From a virus (lineage: Duplodnaviria; Caudoviricetes), in the IMG/VR virus record IMGVR_UViG_3300037631_000215, positions 1 through 24,115 of that record: a stretch of DNA of 24,115 nt. One strand, given 5' to 3'. Each line of letters begins with the position of its first letter. The first letter of the stretch is position 1. Position numbers and translations under genes: made by a program. A model generated the notes under the pieces. The model saw only the letters and a program-made list of their open reading frames with translations. It was not told the DNA's origin and did not search any database. Shown here piece after piece: positions 3,577-16,285 of this stretch.

Positions 3577-4803
3577 ATGGTTGATACAGTAGTAGACCCC
3601 AACAGTCCCGTAGGACAAATTTCCGGCAGTTCACAAGGACTGTCCGAATTCGCTGGCCCGTATGTTGGTGAGATGCTTGGCAAAGCACGAGCACTCGCTG
3701 ATAAGCCCTATGAAGCCTACGGTGGCCCACTTACTGCCGGTGCTAGCGGCCTACAAGATAAGGCTTTTGCGGGCTACGCAGGGTTAGATCCCAACCAGCA
3801 AACTGGCATAGCTTCTTTTGGCGGTGATATGACTGCTGGTGGTACGTTTGGTTTTGGCAGTGCCGCAGGACAAGGTTACGAAGCAGGGTACACACCGGGA
3901 TCGTTTACAGGTGCCGCACCTATGATGCCCCCTGCACTAGATGAATTTGGGCGGTTTAATCCCATTATCCCGAGAGGAGGCGAACCGGCACCTCGATTTA
4001 GCGACCATAGGGCGCGTTTTCTTGAGGACACTAGACTCAAAGAACAACCTGTTTTTGGGCGGCAACAACCTCCGCAATCTCCGGTGGGGCAGTACATGAA
4101 CCCCTACCTACAAGCTGCATTAGAGCCGCAACTACGCGAAGCACGTCGCCAAGCGGATATTAGTCGTGTTGCTGACGCTGGCCGATTAACTCGTGCCGGT
4201 GCTTTTGGCGGTTCGCGCCAAGCCATTATGGAAGCAGAGGGCGGACGTAATCTGGGAACGCAGCTAGCTGATATTACAGGCAGAGGGTACTCCGAAGCAT
4301 TTACACAAGCGCGAGATCAGTTCAACAAAGAACAAGAAATGCAGCGGTTAGCAGAAGATGCACGCCGTGGTCAGTTTAACGTAGAAGCTGGACGGCTATC
4401 CGAATTCGATGAACGCCGTAGACTACAGTCAAACGAAGAAGCTCGACGTGAAGTAGAGCGGCAAGAGCGGGAACGTGAGCAGTTTAATGAGCAGGAACGC
4501 CGCAGAATCGCAGCAGAAGAAGCTGACCGCCGCTACGGCCTAAGCGCATTACGTGATATGCGTGCCGCTGGACAAGAAGAACGTGGTATTGAACAAGAAG
4601 GCATCACTGCTGACTACTTGCAGTATCAACAAGAACAACAGTATCCATATGAACAGTTAGAGTTTATGCAATCCATGCTACAAGGCCTACCGATCACTGC
4701 CACATCTCGGCAGTTTGTTGAACCCGGAGGGTTTCAAGACTTATCTGGTGGCTTAGGCGGACTTCTTGCACTTCTTAGAGGAGGGCCACAGTATGCTATC
4801 TAA
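3577..4803 (+). CDS. Probable DNA ejection/pilot-like internal virion protein
   Basis: QYMNPY, AGAFGGSRQAI and PYEQLxFMxSMLxGLP motifs are typical of podophage internal proteins (recalled, not searched). It also has a long Q/E/R helical region and a Gly/Leu-rich C-terminus. Confidence 0.65.
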   Translation: MVDTVVDPNSPVGQISGSSQGLSEFAGPYVGEMLGKARALADKPYEAYGGPLTAGASGLQDKAFAGYAGLDPNQQTGIASFGGDMTAGGTFGFGSAAGQGYEAGYTPGSFTGAAPMMPPALDEFGRFNPIIPRGGEPAPRFSDHRARFLEDTRLKEQPVFGRQQPPQSPVGQYMNPYLQAALEPQLREARRQADISRVADAGRLTRAGAFGGSRQAIMEAEGGRNLGTQLADITGRGYSEAFTQARDQFNKEQEMQRLAEDARRGQFNVEAGRLSEFDERRRLQSNEEARREVERQEREREQFNEQERRRIAAEEADRRYGLSALRDMRAAGQEERGIEQEGITADYLQYQQEQQYPYEQLEFMQSMLQGLPITATSRQFVEPGGFQDLSGGLGGLLALLRGGPQYAI

Positions 4804-6529
4804 CCCCCTCAGTCAGATCGAACGTACGAAAGACGCCTACGCAGGTAACATGCAGGGGCTAGAAAAGCGTGCCAACATGACCAAAGAACTGGTCGATTTG
4901 CTTGCCATGCAGCAGCTCAAGAAAGATCTTGATGCGGTAAAACGCAACCAAGCTATGCAAGCGCAAGGCAACCCTGCGACTATTAAAGAACAAATGCAGC
5001 AGGGGTTGATGGGTGAGTACCGCCAACAAGCTGCCAAAGAGATGGGCGTAGGCCCAAGCGAAGCAGATACGGTAGCTCGTGCACAACAAGGTATGCCTCA
5101 AGGTGGCCAACGTATGCCACAAGGCGCTCCACAACAGATGCCACAGGCTGGCGCACAACAAATGGCACAAGGCGTTATGAGCCAAGCACAGCCAGTCAAA
5201 CTAGCTGGCGGCGGTATTGTTGCGTTTCAGGAAGGTGGCCTGACCGACGAAAAACGAGAGATGCAGGAGCTTATAGAAAGGCTTAGAGAACGTAGGGCAG
5301 ACGCACCTTTAGTCCCCGCTTTTCTTACAGAACATACTATAACTCAAGAAAGAGCTAGACGTAGAGGAAGCCCTGTCTTAGAAGACGTGGCGGAACGAAT
5401 AGCGGAAGCCGATGTAGCCGAACCGAGCGAAGGCGCTATTGCAGCCTTAGAAGGAACACCCCTTGAAGGTGCACTTACCCGCGACATGCTTCCAGCAGCG
5501 GAAGGCACCCCTGCATCGGGGATCATGCTTGCTGGTGTACCTGATGAAGAGCCAGCTACAGCTCCAGCCGAAATACAGCCCGCCGCAGGCCTAGCCGCTG
5601 TAGCCCAAACTCCAGCAAAAACAAGTGGGGAAGGCGAAGAACCCGGCATACGTGAACTGCTTATGCAAAAACTGCGAGCCGATATTGGACGAGATCCAGA
5701 AGCCGCAGGTGCTAGAAGGGCGGCGATGATTAGAAGAGAGCTGGGTCTGGATGAAGGTATAGCTACATTAGCCGATAGAAAGGCTCGGCGGGAACAAGCA
5801 TTTCAAGATATGCAGCCATCACGTAGAGACAACCTTATAGATCTACTGACCGCTGGTGGTAGAGGCGGTATTACTGGTGTAGGTGTACGCGACAGGCAAC
5901 TACGTGATGCCGCTAGAGAACGCCGTATGGCTTACGAAGATAAGTTAGACGATATAGAAAACACTTCTATGGAGCTTCGTCGCAGTATCGGCACTGCCGC
6001 AGCGAACGAGTACAGTAAAGCCGCCACGCGAGATCTTCAGACAATGAACAATGCAGCTACAGTGCTGCAACGCATGGACGTAGAAGATCGTCAGAGAGTT
6101 GAAGCTGATCTAACTAGAAAACGTCAAGAAGCTAAACTTGAGATCGACAGAACCAATGCCCTCGGTAAGTTGCTTGGGTCTACTAAGACCTTCGCGGAAG
6201 CGGCTGAAAAACTTACAGAGGGTATTAGCAGCATTTCAGAGCGTATTCGTGACCCTTACGAGACACGTCGTGCCTTGTTAGAGCAAAGAGCTTTGGGCGG
6301 TGATGAACAGGCGAAGGAAGACTTAAAGAATTTAGAAAATACTATCAGCCTTCAGATTATCAACGACCCAGAGTACATACGCCTACAGACAATGCTAGAA
6401 AGCCTTGATACGGAAAGACTCGCATCGCAGGATCAACGAGCCGCACTAGCCGCAGGATTAAGAGGGGTACAAGTTGCAGACGTTAGCGATGAAGACGAGT
6501 CTCTTGTAGCTAGCTACGAAGGGCGCTAA
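4793..6529 (+). CDS. Probable internal virion protein (Q/M-rich N-terminus, LAGGG/FQEGG motifs, coiled-coil C-terminus)
   Basis: Long ORF. Strong RBS GAGGAGG at about 4778-4784 precedes ATG 4793, which is preferred over the track's TTG 4766. It lies between other cargo-like genes. Confidence 0.65.
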   Translation: MLSNPLSQIERTKDAYAGNMQGLEKRANMTKELVDLLAMQQLKKDLDAVKRNQAMQAQGNPATIKEQMQQGLMGEYRQQAAKEMGVGPSEADTVARAQQGMPQGGQRMPQGAPQQMPQAGAQQMAQGVMSQAQPVKLAGGGIVAFQEGGLTDEKREMQELIERLRERRADAPLVPAFLTEHTITQERARRRGSPVLEDVAERIAEADVAEPSEGAIAALEGTPLEGALTRDMLPAAEGTPASGIMLAGVPDEEPATAPAEIQPAAGLAAVAQTPAKTSGEGEEPGIRELLMQKLRADIGRDPEAAGARRAAMIRRELGLDEGIATLADRKARREQAFQDMQPSRRDNLIDLLTAGGRGGITGVGVRDRQLRDAARERRMAYEDKLDDIENTSMELRRSIGTAAANEYSKAATRDLQTMNNAATVLQRMDVEDRQRVEADLTRKRQEAKLEIDRTNALGKLLGSTKTFAEAAEKLTEGISSISERIRDPYETRRALLEQRALGGDEQAKEDLKNLENTISLQIINDPEYIRLQTMLESLDTERLASQDQRAALAAGLRGVQVADVSDEDESLVASYEGR

Positions 6530-6532
6530 AAC

Positions 6533-9500
6533 ATGGCAAGAGTTTCAGTAGCCAGAATTGAAGCGGCTATTCAAAAAGCGGAAGCTCTTGGAGATACGGC
6601 TAATGCCAACCAACTACGCGCTGCGTTAGCAAGGAGCGCACCACCTGCCCCGACTATACCGACGCAGCCGACAGGCCCGTCAGACCTTGATAGAAGGCGT
6701 GCCGAACTAGAAGCTAGGATAGCTGCAAGAGAAGCCGCACCAGTCGCACCTACAGAAACAGGGTTCTTTGAAGACATTACCTCTGGATTCGGTGCAGGTG
6801 TTGTCGGTGTAGGTGAGATGGCTGCACTTGGTCTTGCCGCTCCGTTGGAAGAAGAAAACGAACTTGCCGCCCGCGAGCGTATTCAGTCCGTTGCTGAGTC
6901 TTTTCGTCCCGAAGGTGGTGACCCAGACTCTGTTACCTACAAACTAAGTTCTGCGCTTGGTTCTATTGCTGGCCTCGCTGCTGTCCCCGCTGCCGCAGCA
7001 TTTACTCCTGTAGGTACTGTCGGTGCTCTTGGCCTTGGCGCGTTAGCCGCTGGTGCCGCTGGTGCTGGTGAGGCAAGTGAACGTGCCCGTGCAGCCGACG
7101 CTACAGAAGAAGAGCGTGGGTCAGCCACCCTGCGTGGTACAGCAATCGGCCTGCTGGACGTACTGCCCATCGCACGGGTATTGCCGCTAAGTAAGATGCC
7201 CGAACTCGCCAAGCTAGTAGATAAGATACCGCCTGAGAAGGTAGAGACTATTGGCGAACGTATCTACAGCGCAGGTATAACCGGCGGTGCGGAAGCCGCA
7301 CAGGAAGCCGCGTCTAACGTCTTACAGAACTTGAACGAGCAGGAGTACAACGCCGCTGCTGAGACGTTTGGTGGTACCGCAGAAGAAGCCGCATTGGGTG
7401 GTGGTGCCGGTGCTATCTTGCAGGGTCTTGTTGACCTGTTCGCCCCACGCAGAGGCGCTAAGACTGTTGGTGATACTGTTGCTCCCGAAGAAGCTCCACC
7501 ACGCCTCGAAGAAGATCAAGTACAGGGTGAGCTGTTTGCACGTCCTACACAGACAGTTGAGCCGGATACAGGCGGAGCACTTACCGACTTCAATGTAGAC
7601 CAGATTAATTCTGCGGTAGAAAGACTTACCGCACGGGGGGTTGCGCCAAACACAATTACTGAAGAGGCTGTGTTTGACGAAATCCTAGCCGCTGAAGAAC
7701 GAGCGGACGCGGCTGCACCAGAACAGTTAACTATCGAAGGCGCAATTGACGCCGCCGAAACTGCTGAAGTCCAAGCCATGATCGACGCAGATGAGACTGC
7801 CGAAATCGAAGCTATGGTGGCAGAAGATGACGCTGCTAAAGCCGCTGCTGATGTAGAACGGGCGCAGGCCAGAAAAAGGTCTGAAAGGGAAACCGCTATC
7901 GGGCAGCAGGTGGATGAAGAACTAGACGCCACTGAAACTAGACGCCGTGAAATACTGGCAGACGTAGTAGAGAAGCAACCTACACGGCAGCTTGGTACGT
8001 TACGTACTAGGTTCTCCCGCGCCTTGGAAGAAGTGAACCTTGATCCAGAGCCTACGGCAGCCGAAAACGCTTCTATGGAACGGGTAATAGATATAAGCCG
8101 TGCAGAGCCTGTACCGCAGGATGATCTTCCTTCTGACTCTGATGTAGCAGCAATAGAAGCGCGGATACGAGAAGCGCGTGAAGATGAAGGAATCACTGAT
8201 ACTTCAGAACTACGTCAAGAATCTTTCGCTGGGTTGGGTCGCAGAGAAGCGCCTACCGAACAAGAGGCCACGCCCGAACCACGCATAATCACCGAAGAAG
8301 ATCTTACTACCGCTGGGTTCAAATCCAATGCTGCTGTACGTAAACGTGTTACGGGTAAAGATCTAAACGATCCAGAAGTCCGGGCAGATCTAGTTAAGGC
8401 TGGACAAAGGTTCAAGAGCCAAGAAGTTAAGACTGGTGTAGACCGTCTACTGCAAGGAGTACCTAGTGAGCAACGTGATTTATTTGCCGACACCAAAAGA
8501 GAACCTGTCGCAGCAGGAAGTGGAACAGGCGATGCAGTTGATCTACAGAGCGTGGAAGTCCCTACAGGACGTGCGAATACCGTGGAATCTGGCCCATCTG
8601 TCGGAGGAGCAGTGGCAGATGCTGGAGGAGGCACTGGACGATCTGTTGCTGGAGAAGGAAGAGAGCAAACTACATTAACGCCAACCCGTGAGGTTAAGCC
8701 TGAAATAGCTGATGCAGGACGTGTTTTAGCTGCCGCTAGACGCGCTATGGCAGAAGCAGAAGAGGCTGTAGCGGCGAAGCCCACACAGAAGAATCAACGC
8801 GCCTTAAAACAGGCAGAGAGGCGGTTTGCTCAGGCGGTTGGATTGCTAAACCAACGATTGGCTGATGTAGATACGCAGGCCATACCTGAAGAGACTGTAG
8901 AGCTGCAACGTCGTGCAGGGCAACAAATGTCAGCTACTGGCATTAGACCAGCTATGGCTGCTGCCGCACCAACTACCGTAGAAGAGGTTACGGCGAAAGA
9001 ACCTACAGTCGAAGAAGCCCGGACAACCGAACAACAAGCTGCTGACAAGCAAAGTCTTTTAGCTGAACGTCGTAAGGCTCGTGACGAACTAATGGCTGCT
9101 GATCCCGACCTAAGCAAAGCTGAAGCCATGCGAATAGCATCTGGGCAGGTTCTTTACGCCCCTCCAAGAGAATATCTTGAGGCACTGGATGCCCCACTAC
9201 CAGACGTTGCCGCTAAAGCAGTGCTCAACAATGAATTACGTCGCGCCCTGCTAGATATAGCTGACAAGTCAGGAGATAAGTTCGTATCTCGCGTAGCCAA
9301 GCGACTGTCTGAGTTTACTGGTGACACTAGAATACTGGCGGTACCGGCAAGCCAATTAGGTAAAGTAGATGGGCAGCAAGTTGATGGGCGTTTCATAACC
9401 GCTGATAACACCATCGTGCTGAACAGGAACTTTTCTAACACTCAGGTACTACTACATGAGATGGCGCACGCAGCGACAATCAATGTTCTACGTAACCCGT

Positions 9501-12500
9501 CGCATCCAACTACCAAGAAGCTGACGAAGCTGTACGAAAGCAGCAAGGAGTATCTGGATCAGGAGTATGGGTCTACGAATGTAGCAGAGTTTGTTGCCGA
9601 AGCGTTTACCAACCCAGAGTTCCAGAGCCAGCTAGCTCGGATCAACCCAGACGGTAAGCCACTCAGTATCTGGCAAGAGATTATTCGTACGGTATCCAAT
9701 CTGCTTGGGTTGGGCAAAGAGCGCGGCACTGCACAGCGCGAAGCTCAACGCCTAATCGAAGACATACTGGCACCTGCTGCCAAGCACCGTGGCGCACCTG
9801 CACTGAACTCGCTGTCTACACGCGATGGTGTACCCAAGGTAATAGACACCATAGCCACACCCAAAGGCACAGTAGCCGATTCCGTCAAGAAAGTTACCGA
9901 TGAGTTCAGAGCTTTGACGGGTGTTGGTACTAAAGGCGGTGGGCCACTGAAGAAAGCCCTACTGTCGCTGATGCCGAACCAAGCAGCGCAGGACATCATA
10001 GAAGATGCCGGTGTAGTCGGATCTGATAAGGTCTTTACAGCTATTGAACTACAGCGCGGCGACCTGAACCGTAACGAAGCCTCTGTACGTGCGGTATTGC
10101 AGCCCATACGTGAGTGGGGTGCGAAGCAGTCTAAAGAGACGATGGATGCGTGGAACAACTTAATTTACGACAGCACCGTTGACCAAGTAGACCCAGAGCT
10201 AACGCTGCAAGAAGCGAAAGATCGTTATAAACAGCAGACTATAGAACTCGAAGACGACGCTGGTAACATCACGACGCAGCTAAAGATAGACCGCTACAAA
10301 GAACTGCGGGCAATCTACGACAGCAAAACGGTTGGTGCCGATGGTCGGCGGGCGTACTCAAACTTACGTAAGCTGTACAAAGATCAGTACACGCAGATGA
10401 CCGCTGCACTGGAAGGCCGTATCGACGGACTGCCTATAGAAGAACAAGCAAAGGCTAATCTGAAGCAGGGCATCTACAACAAGATGCTTGAGAACACCAA
10501 GCTAGAGCCGTACTTCCCATTGACACGTACTGGTTCGTATTTCTTGGATGTAAGAGATCCAGATGAAGGTATCAACTCGGCAGTGTTTGCCTTTGAAAGC
10601 GGCGGGGCACGGCTACGCGCTATGGAAGAGTACGCCAAACAAGGCTACAAAGTAGACGCTTTTGACGCAAGTGATACCGCTTCGTACAAAGAAGCGCCGT
10701 CAGGGTCTTTTGTGTCTAGTGTGTTAGGGCTAACTAACGCGGCAAAAACTGGCCTCCCCGCAGATCAGAAACAGCAGTTTGAAGCGGTGGAAGAACAGAT
10801 CGTACGGTTGTTCGTGGAGCACCTACCCGAATCTTCGTTTGCTAGGTCTCTGCTAGGACGTAAAGGTACTCAGGGTTACGATGTAGACGCTATAGATGCG
10901 GCACGTACGAAAGCCTTTGATCTTGGTCGGCAGGTTGCCCGTATTAAGAACTCTAGGCTGATAGACCAAGCAACGCAGGAAGTTATCGAAGCTAACCCAG
11001 AGATGCGTGGTAGCGTGGAACTAGAAGAAATACAGAACCGTGCTAAGTTCGCTGCAAGCCCTCCTCTGGACAATTACGCAAAAAATGCAAATCGCTTTGC
11101 GTTCCTATACACAATCGGCTTCAACGCCTCGTCCGCGTTAGTTAACCTGTCTCAAATACCCCTATTCGCATACCCCATGCTGGCAGGTAGGTATGGGTTT
11201 AACGCGACCAAGACAGCATTAGGAGGCTCCACTAAGTTGTTTATGGGTTCTCCAAAGAACCGAACCTCGGAGAGCCTGTTTGGTGACGAGCAAACGCCAA
11301 GGTCTGTAAAAGACGCCTTGATGAAGGGCGACCTAAATGCTGCTAGGGCGGCACTGGCAGACTCGGCAATGCCTTCGATAGAAAACTACTACACGATAAC
11401 TCGTGACGCTGAAGGTAGGCCCACCTACACGGTACGAAAAGACCTAGACCTAGACAGCGACAGGGTTACAGAGTTGGAGGAGATGATCCCGCTAGTAACG
11501 CTTGCAGAGCGTCGTGGGCAACTTAATTCGTCTTTCATAGCAGACACCCTTAGCACCAGTGAAGCGGGTCGTAAGATGAGCTTCATGGATAAGGTTACAA
11601 ACGCTTCAGCATTTATGTTTCACGAAGCGGAAGTAATGAATCGCCAAGTGACCATGATGGCAGCGTATAAGCTAGCACTAAAGAAATTAGTGGGAAGTAA
11701 GAAACCTACAGCGGAGCAACAGCAGCAAGCCGCTGAACAGGCCATATATGAGACCCAGCAGATTAACGGTGGTGCAACGCTAGAGACTGGGCCACGCCTA
11801 GCAAGAAAAGGCATTGGTCGAGTAGCTTTGATGTACAAGACCTACGGCATCCAGATGTATTACACGATGCTGAAATCCGCACGACAGTTAGCGAAGAACA
11901 TAGCCCCCGGCGATGACGCGCAAAGTAGAGCCTTACGCGCAGAAGCCTTCAAACAGCTTGCGGGAGTTCACTTATCCGCGCTCTTCTTCGCTGGGGCACA
12001 GGGTCTGCCGCTATATGGCGCTGTCGCCATGCTTCACGATCTCCTCAAGGAAGACTACGAAGAGGATGCAGATACTGCATTGCGCGGCTACCTAGATAAC
12101 GATGCGCTATTCAAAGGCGCTCTGTCCGAGATAACCGGTCTTGACGTGTCACAGCGTGTGAAGCTGACCGACTTGCTGTTTGAGGCCGACAGGTTTAACA
12201 GCGACCCTTCGCCGGAAGAAGAGTTTGCTCACCTGTTCGGTGGCCCTGCATGGAGCGTGTACTCTAGAGGAAGAAAGGGTGTAGATAAGATAGCTGACGG
12301 TGAACTGCTGGCAGGTATAGAAGATATGATGCCGGGCGCTGTACGTAACCTGTATAGAGCTGTTTACAAGTACCCGCATGACGAAGGTATCCTGACTCGC
12401 CGTGGCGACCCCGTATACGACGACATCACGAACGGTGACTTATTCTCTCAGCTATTAGGCTTCCCACCCACCGAATACACTAGGGCTATGGAAGAGACAT

Positions 12501-12790
12501 CTGCTGCCAAACGTCTGGATGTGGCTGCCCAAACTGCGCGGCGCAAGATACTCAAACGCTACTATGTAGCCTTACGTTTCGGTGATAATGACGGTGCCCT
12601 AGAGGCACTGGACGACATGATGGAGTTTAACCAGTCTGAGGCTGTACAACTGAACCCAGCCGCGTTCATCTCATCTGACACCATAGAACGGTCTCTAAAC
12701 AGGCACATGGCTACTACTGCCAAGATGCACAATGGTGTGCTGTTATCTCCTTATGTAAAGACAGCAGCGGATCAAGAAGGGTACTTGTAA
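6533..12790 (+). CDS. Giant internal virion/large polyvalent-type protein with zincin-like metallopeptidase (HEMAH) and a PLxRFG-like C-terminal region
   Basis: 2085 aa with N-terminal Gly/Ala hydrophobic segments, VLLHEMAH (HEMAH at 9455-9469) plus downstream EFVAEAF, and PYFPLTRTG (about 10508-10534). It is the last gene of the structural operon. Confidence 0.75.
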   Translation: MARVSVARIEAAIQKAEALGDTANANQLRAALARSAPPAPTIPTQPTGPSDLDRRRAELEARIAAREAAPVAPTETGFFEDITSGFGAGVVGVGEMAALGLAAPLEEENELAARERIQSVAESFRPEGGDPDSVTYKLSSALGSIAGLAAVPAAAAFTPVGTVGALGLGALAAGAAGAGEASERARAADATEEERGSATLRGTAIGLLDVLPIARVLPLSKMPELAKLVDKIPPEKVETIGERIYSAGITGGAEAAQEAASNVLQNLNEQEYNAAAETFGGTAEEAALGGGAGAILQGLVDLFAPRRGAKTVGDTVAPEEAPPRLEEDQVQGELFARPTQTVEPDTGGALTDFNVDQINSAVERLTARGVAPNTITEEAVFDEILAAEERADAAAPEQLTIEGAIDAAETAEVQAMIDADETAEIEAMVAEDDAAKAAADVERAQARKRSERETAIGQQVDEELDATETRRREILADVVEKQPTRQLGTLRTRFSRALEEVNLDPEPTAAENASMERVIDISRAEPVPQDDLPSDSDVAAIEARIREAREDEGITDTSELRQESFAGLGRREAPTEQEATPEPRIITEEDLTTAGFKSNAAVRKRVTGKDLNDPEVRADLVKAGQRFKSQEVKTGVDRLLQGVPSEQRDLFADTKREPVAAGSGTGDAVDLQSVEVPTGRANTVESGPSVGGAVADAGGGTGRSVAGEGREQTTLTPTREVKPEIADAGRVLAAARRAMAEAEEAVAAKPTQKNQRALKQAERRFAQAVGLLNQRLADVDTQAIPEETVELQRRAGQQMSATGIRPAMAAAAPTTVEEVTAKEPTVEEARTTEQQAADKQSLLAERRKARDELMAADPDLSKAEAMRIASGQVLYAPPREYLEALDAPLPDVAAKAVLNNELRRALLDIADKSGDKFVSRVAKRLSEFTGDTRILAVPASQLGKVDGQQVDGRFITADNTIVLNRNFSNTQVLLHEMAHAATINVLRNPSHPTTKKLTKLYESSKEYLDQEYGSTNVAEFVAEAFTNPEFQSQLARINPDGKPLSIWQEIIRTVSNLLGLGKERGTAQREAQRLIEDILAPAAKHRGAPALNSLSTRDGVPKVIDTIATPKGTVADSVKKVTDEFRALTGVGTKGGGPLKKALLSLMPNQAAQDIIEDAGVVGSDKVFTAIELQRGDLNRNEASVRAVLQPIREWGAKQSKETMDAWNNLIYDSTVDQVDPELTLQEAKDRYKQQTIELEDDAGNITTQLKIDRYKELRAIYDSKTVGADGRRAYSNLRKLYKDQYTQMTAALEGRIDGLPIEEQAKANLKQGIYNKMLENTKLEPYFPLTRTGSYFLDVRDPDEGINSAVFAFESGGARLRAMEEYAKQGYKVDAFDASDTASYKEAPSGSFVSSVLGLTNAAKTGLPADQKQQFEAVEEQIVRLFVEHLPESSFARSLLGRKGTQGYDVDAIDAARTKAFDLGRQVARIKNSRLIDQATQEVIEANPEMRGSVELEEIQNRAKFAASPPLDNYAKNANRFAFLYTIGFNASSALVNLSQIPLFAYPMLAGRYGFNATKTALGGSTKLFMGSPKNRTSESLFGDEQTPRSVKDALMKGDLNAARAALADSAMPSIENYYTITRDAEGRPTYTVRKDLDLDSDRVTELEEMIPLVTLAERRGQLNSSFIADTLSTSEAGRKMSFMDKVTNASAFMFHEAEVMNRQVTMMAAYKLALKKLVGSKKPTAEQQQQAAEQAIYETQQINGGATLETGPRLARKGIGRVALMYKTYGIQMYYTMLKSARQLAKNIAPGDDAQSRALRAEAFKQLAGVHLSALFFAGAQGLPLYGAVAMLHDLLKEDYEEDADTALRGYLDNDALFKGALSEITGLDVSQRVKLTDLLFEADRFNSDPSPEEEFAHLFGGPAWSVYSRGRKGVDKIADGELLAGIEDMMPGAVRNLYRAVYKYPHDEGILTRRGDPVYDDITNGDLFSQLLGFPPTEYTRAMEETSAAKRLDVAAQTARRKILKRYYVALRFGDNDGALEALDDMMEFNQSEAVQLNPAAFISSDTIERSLNRHMATTAKMHNGVLLSPYVKTAADQEGYL
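8466..8678 (+). CDS. Putative overprinted 70-aa protein nested (+1 frame) in the giant virion gene
   Basis: AAGGAG at 8454-8459 lies 6 nt before GTG. The product reads as a protein-like amphipathic sequence (MSNVIYLP...LAHLSEEQWQMLEEALDDLLLEKEESKLH), and the host frame is a Gly-rich low-complexity linker here. Confidence 0.6.
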   Translation: MSNVIYLPTPKENLSQQEVEQAMQLIYRAWKSLQDVRIPWNLAHLSEEQWQMLEEALDDLLLEKEESKLH

Positions 12791-12832
12791 AAAACCCCCT
12801 TACCGCAAGAAGGGGTAGTTACGGTAAGGGGG
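12789..12832 (-). terminator. Rho-independent terminator-like hairpin between the convergent modules
   Basis: 11-bp inverted repeat cccccttaccg (12795-12805) / cggtaaggggg (12822-12832). The A6 at 12789-12794 gives a U-tract on the - strand. Confidence 0.7.
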
Positions 12833-12892
12833 GTAGGAAGGCGATAAGACCTTTCAGCAGGAGACCGGACGACCTTATCAGGGCGGATCGTA

Positions 12893-13120
12893 TCATACCA
12901 ATCTCCAGACGCGAACCCCTAAAAAACGACCTTCTAGGACGCCCTTGGCCCGTATATCCCACTCCATTTCGTCTACACAGATGCGTTTAATCTGCTGTAG
13001 CGCCTTGTCCGTGTTGATACACGGCACAAATATCGAACTCCCTACCACCATAGCACCCCAGTCCACCACGATACGTACCCCGTCAGGGTTCAAGTCATAC
13101 GTCTTGAGCGTTATCTCCAT
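12893..13120 (-). CDS. Small hypothetical phage protein (MxVGxS..V...RVWR type)
   Basis: 75 aa, start overlaps the upstream stop, last gene before the terminator. The motif is shared with 23555..23821. Confidence 0.7.
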   Translation of the reverse strand: MEITLKTYDLNPDGVRIVVDWGAMVVGSSIFVPCINTDKALQQIKRICVDEMEWDIRAKGVLEGRFLGVRVWRLV

Positions 13121-13389
13121 GTCTTACGTAGCTTACCTTTCACGATACGGTAGCGGTTGTATATGTTATTAACCGTGTGCGGCTGAAACCCCAACTCCCG
13201 AGCAATGTCCGCACGTTTAATCCCCTTATTGTGCAGTTTCAGCACTAGCCTAATCTGGTCTTCAGTGTAGACCGGCTGATACCTACCACTTCTCCTGTCA
13301 TATGGGGATACGGTGACACGTTTACCCTTTTTCCCCAACTCCACTACTTTCTCCTGCGCTCGTATCGCTGCCATGAACGTCGCCGTCAT
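13111..13389 (-). CDS. Helix-turn-helix DNA-binding protein
   Basis: YTEDQIRLVLKLHNKGIKRADIARELGFQPHTVNNIY is a classic tri-helical HTH. The start is uncertain (13389 or 13374) and overlaps the primase 3' end. Confidence 0.7.
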   Translation of the reverse strand: MTATFMAAIRAQEKVVELGKKGKRVTVSPYDRRSGRYQPVYTEDQIRLVLKLHNKGIKRADIARELGFQPHTVNNIYNRYRIVKGKLRKTWR

Positions 13390-16285
13390 CTAAACTTTCT
13401 CCATCTTCGTTAGTTGCATTAAACACCTTGCAGTCAACTATCAGCACTCTATATGCAGGCATAGCCGACCCTATGTGCGTGCCTTTACCTAACCGCATAG
13501 ATCCACGCTTACCACCTAACTTGTTAATCAGGTCGCTCGTGAATGCGCCATAGTTAATCTGATGTGTGGCGCACCAAGCCTTCAAGAACCTCGGAACTAA
13601 GTACGCTTTCTTTGTGTCTGTCTCGAACCGCGCCACTAACCTACCTTTCGGTAGTGCGTCGGGTATGACGATACTATCCAACCCATTACCAGAACCACTG
13701 CGTAGGTCGTCCGTGCTCTTGATTACCAGTATGTTGTTATAGTTTTCAGTCAGGTAGTCGTTAAGTGTTTGTTCTACTGATGACCCCATATCGTTAACCG
13801 ATTGCAGGTTTAGTTTAAGTAGGTTAACAGTCCACTTAAATAAGCCCTTCATGTCGTAGTCGATTAGCTCCAGTTTGTTGGCGATGTACGCCCCAGCTAG
13901 TGTGGTAGCAGCTCCGGCAGACCAGAAACGGTTTTCTGATGTAAGCCCTGCCGCCTCATCAATCTTACGCTGGAACCCAAGTACGAGCTTCTTAACGTCT
14001 TCTAAGTTCTGCATGACCCACTGAATATAAATAATCCCAGCGTGCCCATAGTTTTCTTCGATAGACCTATCGAACGCATCCGTACCTTTCTTCTCCTCCG
14101 TGCTGGTGAATACCCGTTGCGCCCTCCATTCCATTATCCTCTGCGCCTCTGCTTTCGGCGCTTGCTTCTCGGCTGCAATACGCTCAATGACACTGGCATT
14201 ACCTGTAGTTACACATGAGAGGTGCCACGGTTCACCACGAGCACGTTCAAGGTTAGCCCCACCAGCCATACGCCCGCGCTGTTCGCCAGAAGATATTTGA
14301 TACGCTAAGTCACTTAGCTGCTCACTTTTCTCATTGGTCAATTCGTCTATGTAAAACGGCAAGTTGTGCAGCACCTCCGCACGGTTAAACTTTATCGCGT
14401 CGGTATCCTTTGCGGTTATCATCATGCCCTTCTGAGCACCCCACACCGAACCCGCTACCCGTATAGCTGCTGTCTTACCGCACCCGCTAAGTGGGCTGTG
14501 TATGTGTAACGCGCAAGCATTCTGAGGCAAGAAACTCATCAGCGGAGAACCGAACGCTGTACTCACAACGTACTGGTGCATAACCAGTTCAGGCCGCGTG
14601 TTGTAGAAATTAGCCATCTTTTTCCACGCCTCCAACGTACCCTTCGGCTTGAGGTATGGGATTAGTGCGGCTGTCGGTGTGGACGGGGGGTTGTGCTCAA
14701 TACGGTCTGCGCGTATTTCACTGTTTCCTACGACAAAGGCGTCCATGTTCTCGTCTACCCAACCGAACTGGCGACGTGCCGTGGCTGCTGTAGAGGTTGC
14801 TTGTAATTCGTTTACCCAAGTAATCATATATTGCATTAAATCGTTTAGTTGAGGGATGGCAACACCTTGCATCGCCATGTTTTTCCTAAATTCTTCTCGT
14901 GAAGTGACCGCCGTAAGAGGCATTGTAAATTCACGTACGCCGTCTTGTGGCAGGTGTATCCTACAAACTACGGACTCCCCGTCTTCTATATCTAATAGCC
15001 GCTGCGTAATGTAGATGTCGTTGTGGTAGATGACATGCTCGTCAACTTCCCCGTCTTGGCTTATGTTCCTGACATACACACCGCCGTTCTGACCACGGAA
15101 GTATGGGCGCGGGTAGACAGGTATAACGTGTTGTGTAGAAAGTTCTTGGCTAGCCGAACCCGGAAGTAACGTACCTTCTAGTAAATCACTCGACTCACCC
15201 GACTCACCCGACTCAACGACATATGTGCCGTCTTCGTTGGCTTCTGCTTCAGCCACCTTGCGCCCTAACACAATCGGTGAACTGATCTTGCCCCAGTGTG
15301 GGCACTCTGTGCAGACACCGCCTTCATTCTCGTCGAATGTTGTGCAGCGGTACGGCCCCTTAATCAGATCCAACTTCTTCAGCGTTAGCTCTGGCGTGTA
15401 TTCGGGGTGCTGGTTTGAGATCTTATGTGCAGCCTTTTCACCGTCTTCGCAGAACTTAGCGATGGACAGGCCTGCCCTCCACATAGGCTCACTCGTCTCG
15501 GCTTGGCCTTTTATTATCCGGCGTAGTTGCTCACACCCGTTACCGTTCTGTGCCTTGAGCAATATGGTTCTGAATTCGTGCTTGTAGTTCTGAATGATTG
15601 CATCACGTAGGCTTGCTGGCCCCTCCGCAGGTACGTACTTCTTGGGAACTGGTATCGTGTCCATCCCCAGCTTACTGGCAAAGAAGTCAAAGTTAACCGT
15701 ATCGGGAGTCTTACCTATGACTTCTACTGGCGCAGGGGTATCAGGTTTGTGGTTATGCGTACCCACTATGCGAAGAACCCGCGCTATGTCAGCAGGTACT
15801 GCGGGGTCTATCTCAAGCCCAAACTCTTTGCACTTGGCCTTGAACTGGTCAGCCACTACCTTCCACTGCTCTACAGCGACGGGTTCAGATAGCACCCAGT
15901 AAACGTGTATGCCACGACCAGAGTTAACGATAAGAGGCTTTGGTAATTCTAGAGCTACGATAAATTCTTGTAGCCTGCGTAACGCCTCTCCCTGTGTAGC
16001 GAACCCCTCGTTCTTAGCTACTTTGTCTTCGCCAACGTCCAAGTCTAAGAAGAATGACTTAATCTGTTTAGCGTCATCACCTTTGCGAGTACCTTCTTCC
16101 TTGAAGTTACTCATCGCAAAGTACATATCCCACCCTTCACTGTCGTGATATTCGGCGGCTTCTGCTAATTCATCTGTTGAGTGAAAGTATGTCTGCCGTA
16201 CCCCGTTCGACGCTAGGCCGTATTGTAGAGCGACGTACACACCTTCTGTGGGTAATACCCACCGTAAAAATTCTCTTGTATTCAT
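13322..16285 (-). CDS. Primase-helicase: N-terminal AEP (RepB'-like) primase, Cys-rich domain, DUF927-like region and P-loop helicase
   Basis: AEP-type motifs FFLDLD, NSGRGIHVYW and ARVLRIVGT; Cys cluster (CEQL...CTTF...CTECPH); Walker A SGCGKT and Walker B FYIDE. ATG 16285 is preferred over TTG 16297. Confidence 0.85.
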   Translation of the reverse strand: MNTREFLRWVLPTEGVYVALQYGLASNGVRQTYFHSTDELAEAAEYHDSEGWDMYFAMSNFKEEGTRKGDDAKQIKSFFLDLDVGEDKVAKNEGFATQGEALRRLQEFIVALELPKPLIVNSGRGIHVYWVLSEPVAVEQWKVVADQFKAKCKEFGLEIDPAVPADIARVLRIVGTHNHKPDTPAPVEVIGKTPDTVNFDFFASKLGMDTIPVPKKYVPAEGPASLRDAIIQNYKHEFRTILLKAQNGNGCEQLRRIIKGQAETSEPMWRAGLSIAKFCEDGEKAAHKISNQHPEYTPELTLKKLDLIKGPYRCTTFDENEGGVCTECPHWGKISSPIVLGRKVAEAEANEDGTYVVESGESGESSDLLEGTLLPGSASQELSTQHVIPVYPRPYFRGQNGGVYVRNISQDGEVDEHVIYHNDIYITQRLLDIEDGESVVCRIHLPQDGVREFTMPLTAVTSREEFRKNMAMQGVAIPQLNDLMQYMITWVNELQATSTAATARRQFGWVDENMDAFVVGNSEIRADRIEHNPPSTPTAALIPYLKPKGTLEAWKKMANFYNTRPELVMHQYVVSTAFGSPLMSFLPQNACALHIHSPLSGCGKTAAIRVAGSVWGAQKGMMITAKDTDAIKFNRAEVLHNLPFYIDELTNEKSEQLSDLAYQISSGEQRGRMAGGANLERARGEPWHLSCVTTGNASVIERIAAEKQAPKAEAQRIMEWRAQRVFTSTEEKKGTDAFDRSIEENYGHAGIIYIQWVMQNLEDVKKLVLGFQRKIDEAAGLTSENRFWSAGAATTLAGAYIANKLELIDYDMKGLFKWTVNLLKLNLQSVNDMGSSVEQTLNDYLTENYNNILVIKSTDDLRSGSGNGLDSIVIPDALPKGRLVARFETDTKKAYLVPRFLKAWCATHQINYGAFTSDLINKLGGKRGSMRLGKGTHIGSAMPAYRVLIVDCKVFNATNEDGESLDDGDVHGSDTSAGESSGVGEKG

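Follow-up and report, generated by a model that had tools for sequence, protein, structure and literature searches.

Most known cases of full nesting of one gene in another in tailed phages are spanins. The Rz/Rz1 spanins of phage lambda are like the locus described here in that a complete small gene lies in the +1 frame of a larger phage gene and in that the architecture changes within families. Unlike Rz1, the nested product described here is soluble and acidic and has no Cys, lipobox or hydrophobic segment; unlike the spanins, its gene lies in that of a virion-type protein of 2085 aa, with no co-variation between the two products. An assignment to the o-spanins (Rz1 type) was tried and rejected, since there is no lipobox Cys, the maximum 19-residue hydropathy is -0.04 and the host gene is not an i-spanin. 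In the accessible text of Kongari et al. (PMC6139136), no spanin family mixes embedded with separated members, whereas the present family has both.

The giant host gene resembles the polyvalent proteins of Iyer et al. (PMC5512222, accessible text) in its HExxH motif with a downstream Glu and in its DarB/PLxRFG-like C-terminus. It differs from them in that one linker here is the by-product of a second gene; a word search of the accessible text of that paper returned 'overlapping' 0 times and 'nested' in a structural sense only.

A third comparison concerns the host protease Lon. Cragan et al. (PMC11986505, accessible text) describe autonomous Lon degrons with an invariant terminal His in several phyla. 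Their consensus is x-L/I-L/I/V-H with notable variation tolerated, several of the tabulated degrons deviate from the strict motif, and Asp/Ser before the tail is associated with weaker Lon recognition. LarA, according to the accessible text of PMC10665427, binds and activates Lon via a terminal-His tail. The nested protein shares a terminal His behind a hydrophobic residue with the SulA, Smg and Y2853 degrons and with LarA, and it is also like LarA in being small, with a predicted C-terminal helix and a short tail. Unlike these His-degron proteins, the nested family is phage-encoded and fits the strict motif in 12 of 95 distinct ends. No homology to SulA, Smg, Y2853 or LarA was found by the family searches.

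T4 PinA is a small phage protein that binds a host AAA+ protease to protect phage proteins. The same is described for lambda CIII in the accessible part of its literature. According to the accessible text of PMC13083879, Lon degrades a phage packaging nuclease, and Dap2 of phage PaoP5 protects against this and is itself not degraded by Lon. The nested protein would be like Dap2 in its proposed mode (a small phage protein that binds a host AAA+ protease and protects phage proteins), and the analogy is loose because Dap2 is not a Lon substrate, whereas the tail of the nested protein is a candidate Lon degron. No homology to Dap2, lambda CIII or T4 PinA was found in the PHROG, PDB and BFVD searches. 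We know of none of the three as a nested gene.

The window, that is, the whole 24,115-nucleotide stretch analysed here, is a 24-kb linear virus record that is about 39% complete. Its replication arm (family A polymerase, SNF2 helicase and DUF927 primase) converges on a plus-strand module that ends with the giant gene. The relevant features are as follows.

3577..6529, plus strand: two upstream ejection-module genes, whose junction is the site of the stand-alone member in L215 and L216
6533..12790, plus strand: giant protein of polyvalent type, 2085 aa, closing the virion/ejection module, with matches to PHROG 10089/11358/30335 in its C-terminal part
8454..8459, plus strand: Shine-Dalgarno sequence AAGGAG of the nested gene, read from the sequence, with a 6-nt spacer and then GTG at 8466
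8466..8678, plus strand: nested gene for an acidic 70-aa protein (pI 4.6) with two predicted helices and neither a membrane nor a signal segment
9200..9799, plus strand: zincin-like metallopeptidase domain, with HEMAH at 9455-9469 and EFVAE from 9587

The nested ORF (8466-8678) runs for 70 codons from a GTG start to a TAA ending at 8678, in the +1 frame of the 2085-codon ORF 6533-12790, and spans host residues 645-716. The original prediction had reported a 70-codon +1 ORF with AAGGAG 6 nt before GTG and a product running from MSNVIYLP to SKLH, and we recovered the same coordinates, frame, spacer and ends. It had also described the giant frame as linker-like over this span, which agrees with a content of 18% Gly and 11% Val in host residues 645-716 compared with 7% and 6% protein-wide, and had placed a metallopeptidase domain about 0.8 kb downstream, where HEMAH begins 777 nt past the nested stop. 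Among 54 family members, taking the best of several candidate starts, 38 have a Shine-Dalgarno match of at least 5 nt and 49 one of at least 4 nt; the corresponding proportions for 12,194 other +1-frame starts are 3.5% and 19.9%. When the giant gene was recoded synonymously, 523 of 2000 recodings yielded some +1 ORF of at least 70 aa with a start codon, 18 of 2000 yielded such an ORF together with a Shine-Dalgarno match of at least 5 nt, and the 8466-8678 span was free of stops in 43 of 2000. Taken from the single sequence alone, the nested ORF is suggestive only; the comparative evidence is much stronger and far outweighs the recoding test.

When 21 sequences were compared across 67 codons, the nested frame had a pN/pS of 0.26 and the giant frame one of 2.37, with amino-acid identities of 71% and 43%, respectively. 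The nested frame is better conserved than the host frame in 209 of 210 pairs, which are non-independent. Variable columns at nested codon positions 1, 2 and 3 number 45, 25 and 63 of 67, respectively. When the whole giant gene of the window was scanned against eight relatives, third-position variation fell below first-position variation in 2 of 58 scan intervals, both on the nested ORF, and this third-position scan revealed no second nested gene anywhere in 6533-12790. All 22 loci found through the nested protein have it in the +1 frame within an open giant frame, and homologs at 30-40% identity retain the frame, the Shine-Dalgarno sequence and the tail. Two checks named in the original prediction thus came out in its favor: selection, examined in both frames, is purifying in the nested one, and the ORF, Shine-Dalgarno sequence, start, stop and nested position are kept in relatives among viral sequences. 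The nested ORF is almost certainly a real gene under selection.

A search of host residues 280-1050 in four non-carriers turned up no nested gene. These non-carriers have a different linker, rich in Pro/Glu/Ala/Lys, with stops in the +1 frame, and for this reason the Gly/Val/Thr linker of the giant protein is evidently a by-product of the nested gene. The earlier proposal that the linker is shaped by selection on the other frame is upheld by the pN/pS contrast and by the differing linkers of non-carriers. That giant genes without the nested gene also lack the Gly/Val/Thr linker is as compatible with insertion as with overprinting. On the by-product reading, a stretch of polyvalent protein that passes for a 'disordered linker' can be the trace left by an overlapping gene.

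Searching 1.84 billion representatives with a profile returned 40 matches, which led to a 41-member alignment with 29-89% identity to the nested protein of the window. The family consists of diverse, unannotated proteins of about 60-80 aa with two helices, and three segments can be marked on the window.

8466..8489, plus strand: MSNVIYLP N-terminal extension, found in the close clade only, with low model confidence (pLDDT 53 over residues 1-10)
8505..8654, plus strand: family core, residues 14-63, L[ST]xxx[VL]ExA ... PxxLxxL[ST]xxxW ... LxxL, from the alignment
8664..8675, plus strand: C-terminal S-K-L-H, family consensus S-x-[LIV]-H, candidate Lon degron, from the count of C-termini

P39, L42 and W50 are invariant in all 41 aligned members, and L14, E20, A22, L45 and L57 are each kept in 40 of the 41. 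The AlphaFold model has helices at residues 16-32 and 47-69 (pLDDT 83, pTM 0.64), in keeping with the folded helical product first proposed. The NVIxLP start, which had been put forward as a recurrent feature, is present in 29 of 54 members in one set and 0 of 32 in another; it is confined to the close clade and is therefore not a family feature. Pfam gave nothing above cut-off for the family, PHROGs no match, PDB sequences 0 matches at E 10 with the 41-member profile, and Foldseek against PDB and BFVD 0 at E 0.001. The Atlas yielded unnamed viral clusters alone at about 0.9 and no usable named match. A candidate relation to DUF2922 (PF11148) was rejected, at 20.8 bits against a gathering cut-off of 25.5, over 22 residues and in 6 of 41 members. 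Cultured phages, the nearest relatives RHph_TM29 and Rollin among them, yielded no homolog, and a family scan with P0048 as query returned no locus. No description of the family was found in the accessible, mostly non-subscription literature on phage genes that are nested or overprinted, on polyvalent proteins or on the internal proteins of virions. The gene arrangement is of a known kind; the protein family is new and comes with a functional lead that can be tested.

Among 44 distinct full-length giant genes, found via the giant protein and leaving out host genes cut at the 5' end, 30 carry the nested gene and 14 do not, so that, in this large group of uncultured phages, about two thirds of the full-length giant genes sampled contain a family member. 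All 87 HMM matches in 140 partly redundant loci are nested and in the +1 frame. On a quick host tree, presence or absence changes 7 times, with at least 4 gains or losses forced by well-supported branches, and the nested position varies from host residue about 330 to about 910. The gene was not found in the complete genome G008, in a first look of limited sensitivity that gave no candidate. In L050 (1591-1821) the first helix and the start are eroded and the second half and the tail are retained, and the copies in its close relatives L153 and L155 are intact. At L080:9561-9761 and L082:8474-8674, a 66-aa ORF ending in PLH lies right behind a distant giant gene and has no family-profile score. 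One locus with both the giant and the nested gene (L196, G040:C13:9392-9556) is on a 55-kb contig in a Ca. Methylopumilus MAG. As a host lead this is weak, being 1 of 301 genomes searched in that family and on a contig that may be misbinned.

Searches seeded by distant members gave 6 of 6 nested matches in one set, and in a second, 32 matches in 34 loci comprised 30 nested and 2 stand-alone members. The stand-alone members (L215:347-523 and L216:2113-2289, on metagenome contigs) are 58 aa long, with a strong Shine-Dalgarno sequence and the other two frames closed. They sit between two ejection-module genes upstream of the giant gene, and the giant gene of L216 has no nested copy within its locus. 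The gene upstream of the L216 copy is 36% identical to the 408-aa gene of the window (E 2e-10); the downstream gene is paired by position and a similar start alone, with no tblastn match, and L215 gave no tblastn match either. In an unrooted tree of 66 columns, from which the 5'-eroded L050 was left out, the stand-alone copies fall in a 95-supported clade with 12 nested members. Because of this grouping in a short unrooted tree, the evidence leans towards the nested state being older and the stand-alone copies having arisen by escape. The original prediction called the gene probably overprinted; the nested gene is real, and a de novo origin is not established, because stand-alone members exist. 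With nested and stand-alone forms in one family, the origin of nested genes becomes testable there.

The nested gene and the giant alleles appear to have separate histories. In L006, L007, L009, L010 and L019, blastn aligns nothing of the giant gene except the nested ORF, which matches at 74-85% starting with its codon 2 and reaching roughly to its stop, and the upstream genes match at 68-95%. The giant domains of L006, L009, L010 and L019 are 26-38% identical to those of the window; in L006, L009 and L010 the nested protein is 84-89% identical and the peptidase domain about 26%. All five are otherwise close phages that carry giant alleles 26-38% identical to the window's. The comparisons are suggestive of wholesale replacement of the ejection-protein gene among otherwise close phages. 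In tree tests with the host C-terminal data, the clade formed by the nested gene is rejected (p-AU 6e-5); with the nested DNA, one host clade is rejected (p-AU 0.003) and another is not (p 0.135). The protein-level test does not reject congruence (p 0.104), so that two of the four tests are without rejection. Nested identity correlates alike with the primase and with the host C-terminus (0.57 versus 0.59), and the two are not separable. We read this as exchange of the small gene, or as giant alleles swapped around it. The comparisons establish, at the level of sequence, a nested gene that is independent, selected, dispensable, exchangeable and tied to the ejection module, with a conserved His tail.

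A scan of 6000-13400 for promoters of the sigma-70 type found none on the plus strand; internal initiation from late mRNA is therefore likely. Contigs from two RNA-labelled runs of one study (X1 and X2, word share 0.29 and 0.24) span the region evenly at flat depth, may derive from DNA and are uninformative about expression. At 8587-8726 of the window these contigs match both flanks and have 150 differing letters between, a variant across the second half of the nested gene.

The C-terminal tail is the feature that bears most directly on function. Before counting we left out P0013, a 1705-aa repeat protein, and P0008, a chimera. Of 95 distinct C-termini, 80 end in [LIV]H and 7 in [LIV]Q, and five others resemble fragments or run-on ends. 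Among long ORFs, 1 of 252 has an [LIV]H end; the corresponding figures are 36 of 3958 for the ends of other +1 ORFs and 0 of 140 for other small ORFs with a Shine-Dalgarno sequence. The stand-alone copies end in STIH and STVH, and because they keep the tail it is not imposed by the host frame. Of the 83 tails that end in His, 63 carry Ser at -4, and the tail is preceded by an acidic run. A terminal His after a hydrophobic residue, as in the published degrons, is found in the SKLH of the window and in the same 80 family ends. The suggestion that the xLH end is meaningful has therefore held up, with nulls below 1% and a match to a published class of Lon degrons. We consider it probable that the tail is a degron recognised by Lon.

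Our preferred, tentative reading is that the nested protein occupies or modulates Lon, its functional target, so that ejection proteins persist to packaging. A small acidic two-helix protein would be made by internal initiation on the late virion mRNA, both its translation and its late timing being part of the proposal. Its histidine-ended tail would engage host Lon, which the protein would then occupy or modulate, the sparing of co-encoded proteins being the most speculative step. The large linker-rich ejection proteins from the same message might thus survive until packaging. In favor of this reading, the nested gene stays in the ejection module even as a stand-alone gene. Several features of the tail count against it: just 12 of the 95 ends fit the strict motif, that of the window fails with Lys at -3, 7 of 95 end in Gln, and the common Ser at -4 and the acidic run ahead of the tail recall the Asp/Ser context that PMC11986505 links to weaker recognition. 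A bare decoy also needs no conserved folded core, which suggests another binding surface. The wider picture, an unannotated phage family of Lon-engaging microproteins that travels as a swappable passenger in giant-gene linkers, can escape to a stand-alone state and shields ejection proteins by His-degron mimicry, is conceivable and rather doubtful. Should the tail function in the predicted way, it would provide an inexpensive means of testing for phage degron mimicry against Lon during virion assembly.

The protein might instead act on the ejection proteins as an assembly chaperone or loading factor, in which case the His tail would serve only to clear it afterwards. This would suit a gene that is always in the ejection module, nested or stand-alone, a conserved amphipathic two-helix core, and phages that also encode a GroES-like protein. 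We regard it as unlikely: 14 of the 44 full-length giant genes are without the nested gene, the search of limited sensitivity did not find it in G008, and the nested protein is nearly unchanged beside giant alleles of 26-38% identity. The nested gene does not co-vary with the peptidase, which argues against an allele-specific chaperone and equally against cognate immunity.

Accessory conflict genes typically have a patchy distribution and are exchanged between lineages. Both traits are seen here, and together with the conservation of E20 and A22 in 40 of 41 members they would suit a late anti-defence or host-control protein that binds a host factor other than Lon and uses its tail as a timer. 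Polyvalent proteins are also conflict-linked in the accessible text of PMC5512222. No target is indicated by any above-cut-off Pfam match or by PHROGs, PDB sequences, the named clusters of the Atlas or the fold libraries, and the family is slow-evolving rather than hypervariable; we judge this explanation, too, to be improbable.

A cognate inhibitor or immunity protein of the HEMAH metallopeptidase, as the original prediction had offered, now seems very unlikely. The two are co-encoded, the gene lying 777 nt upstream, the peptidase motif is intact, and every full-length carrier inspected has HExxH. The non-carriers inspected retain HExxH as well, the distance from gene to domain varies by hundreds of residues, and the accessible text of Iyer et al. 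(PMC5512222) proposes autoproteolysis or effector roles, with no overlapping partner gene by word search. The reading is poorly supported because the gene is missing from 14 of 44 giant genes and because nested proteins of 85-90% identity accompany peptidases of 26% identity.

Ribosomal frameshifting into the +1 frame, giving the giant protein an alternative C-terminus, is highly improbable. Two database proteins, P0008 and P0040, do fuse giant-frame to nested-frame sequence, but contigs matching P0040 at 99% keep the two frames apart, and an in-frame stop lies just ahead of the ATG, so the P0040 fusion probably reflects misassembly. In many members no more than 0-4 codons of open +1 frame precede the start led by the Shine-Dalgarno sequence, and stand-alone copies exist. 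That the ORF is no gene at all, being a chance ORF of the kind seen in the recodings or a conserved RNA or DNA element, is scarcely credible given the concentration of variation on its third positions, the retention of frame, Shine-Dalgarno sequence and tail in distant homologs, and the stand-alone genes in L215 and L216.

The giant protein has PLxRFG/DarB-like matches in cultured phages, and we infer that it is packaged and ejected, with a virion location. The H, E and H of its peptidase and the downstream E are invariant in 27 aligned relatives, giving it the HExxH helix and downstream Glu by which polyvalent-protein MPTases are recognised. The giant genes of L042, L049, L051, L052, L061 and L224 have, upstream of the shared HExxH, a further one (HEIGH or HELGH). 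The nested gene is absent from the L042-L061 group and present in L224. The relative G022, for which 35 of 58 called ORFs were submitted to annotation, carries terminase, portal, GroES-like, major head and tail genes on the same strand, and its homolog of the 408-aa gene matches a 'DNA ejection protein' PHROG weakly (E 1e-3). Its GroES-like co-chaperonin gene (L233:6689-7060; PHROG 3188, E 2e-10) adjoins the portal gene. The polymerase is 32-35% identical to those of the nearest cultured phages. CRP-810-type phages were considered as the family of this phage and rejected by description, 'DNA polymerase' being absent from their paper and present here. Right after the giant stop, between the converging arms, a minus-strand hairpin with a T-run at 12795-12815 of the window is likely a terminator.
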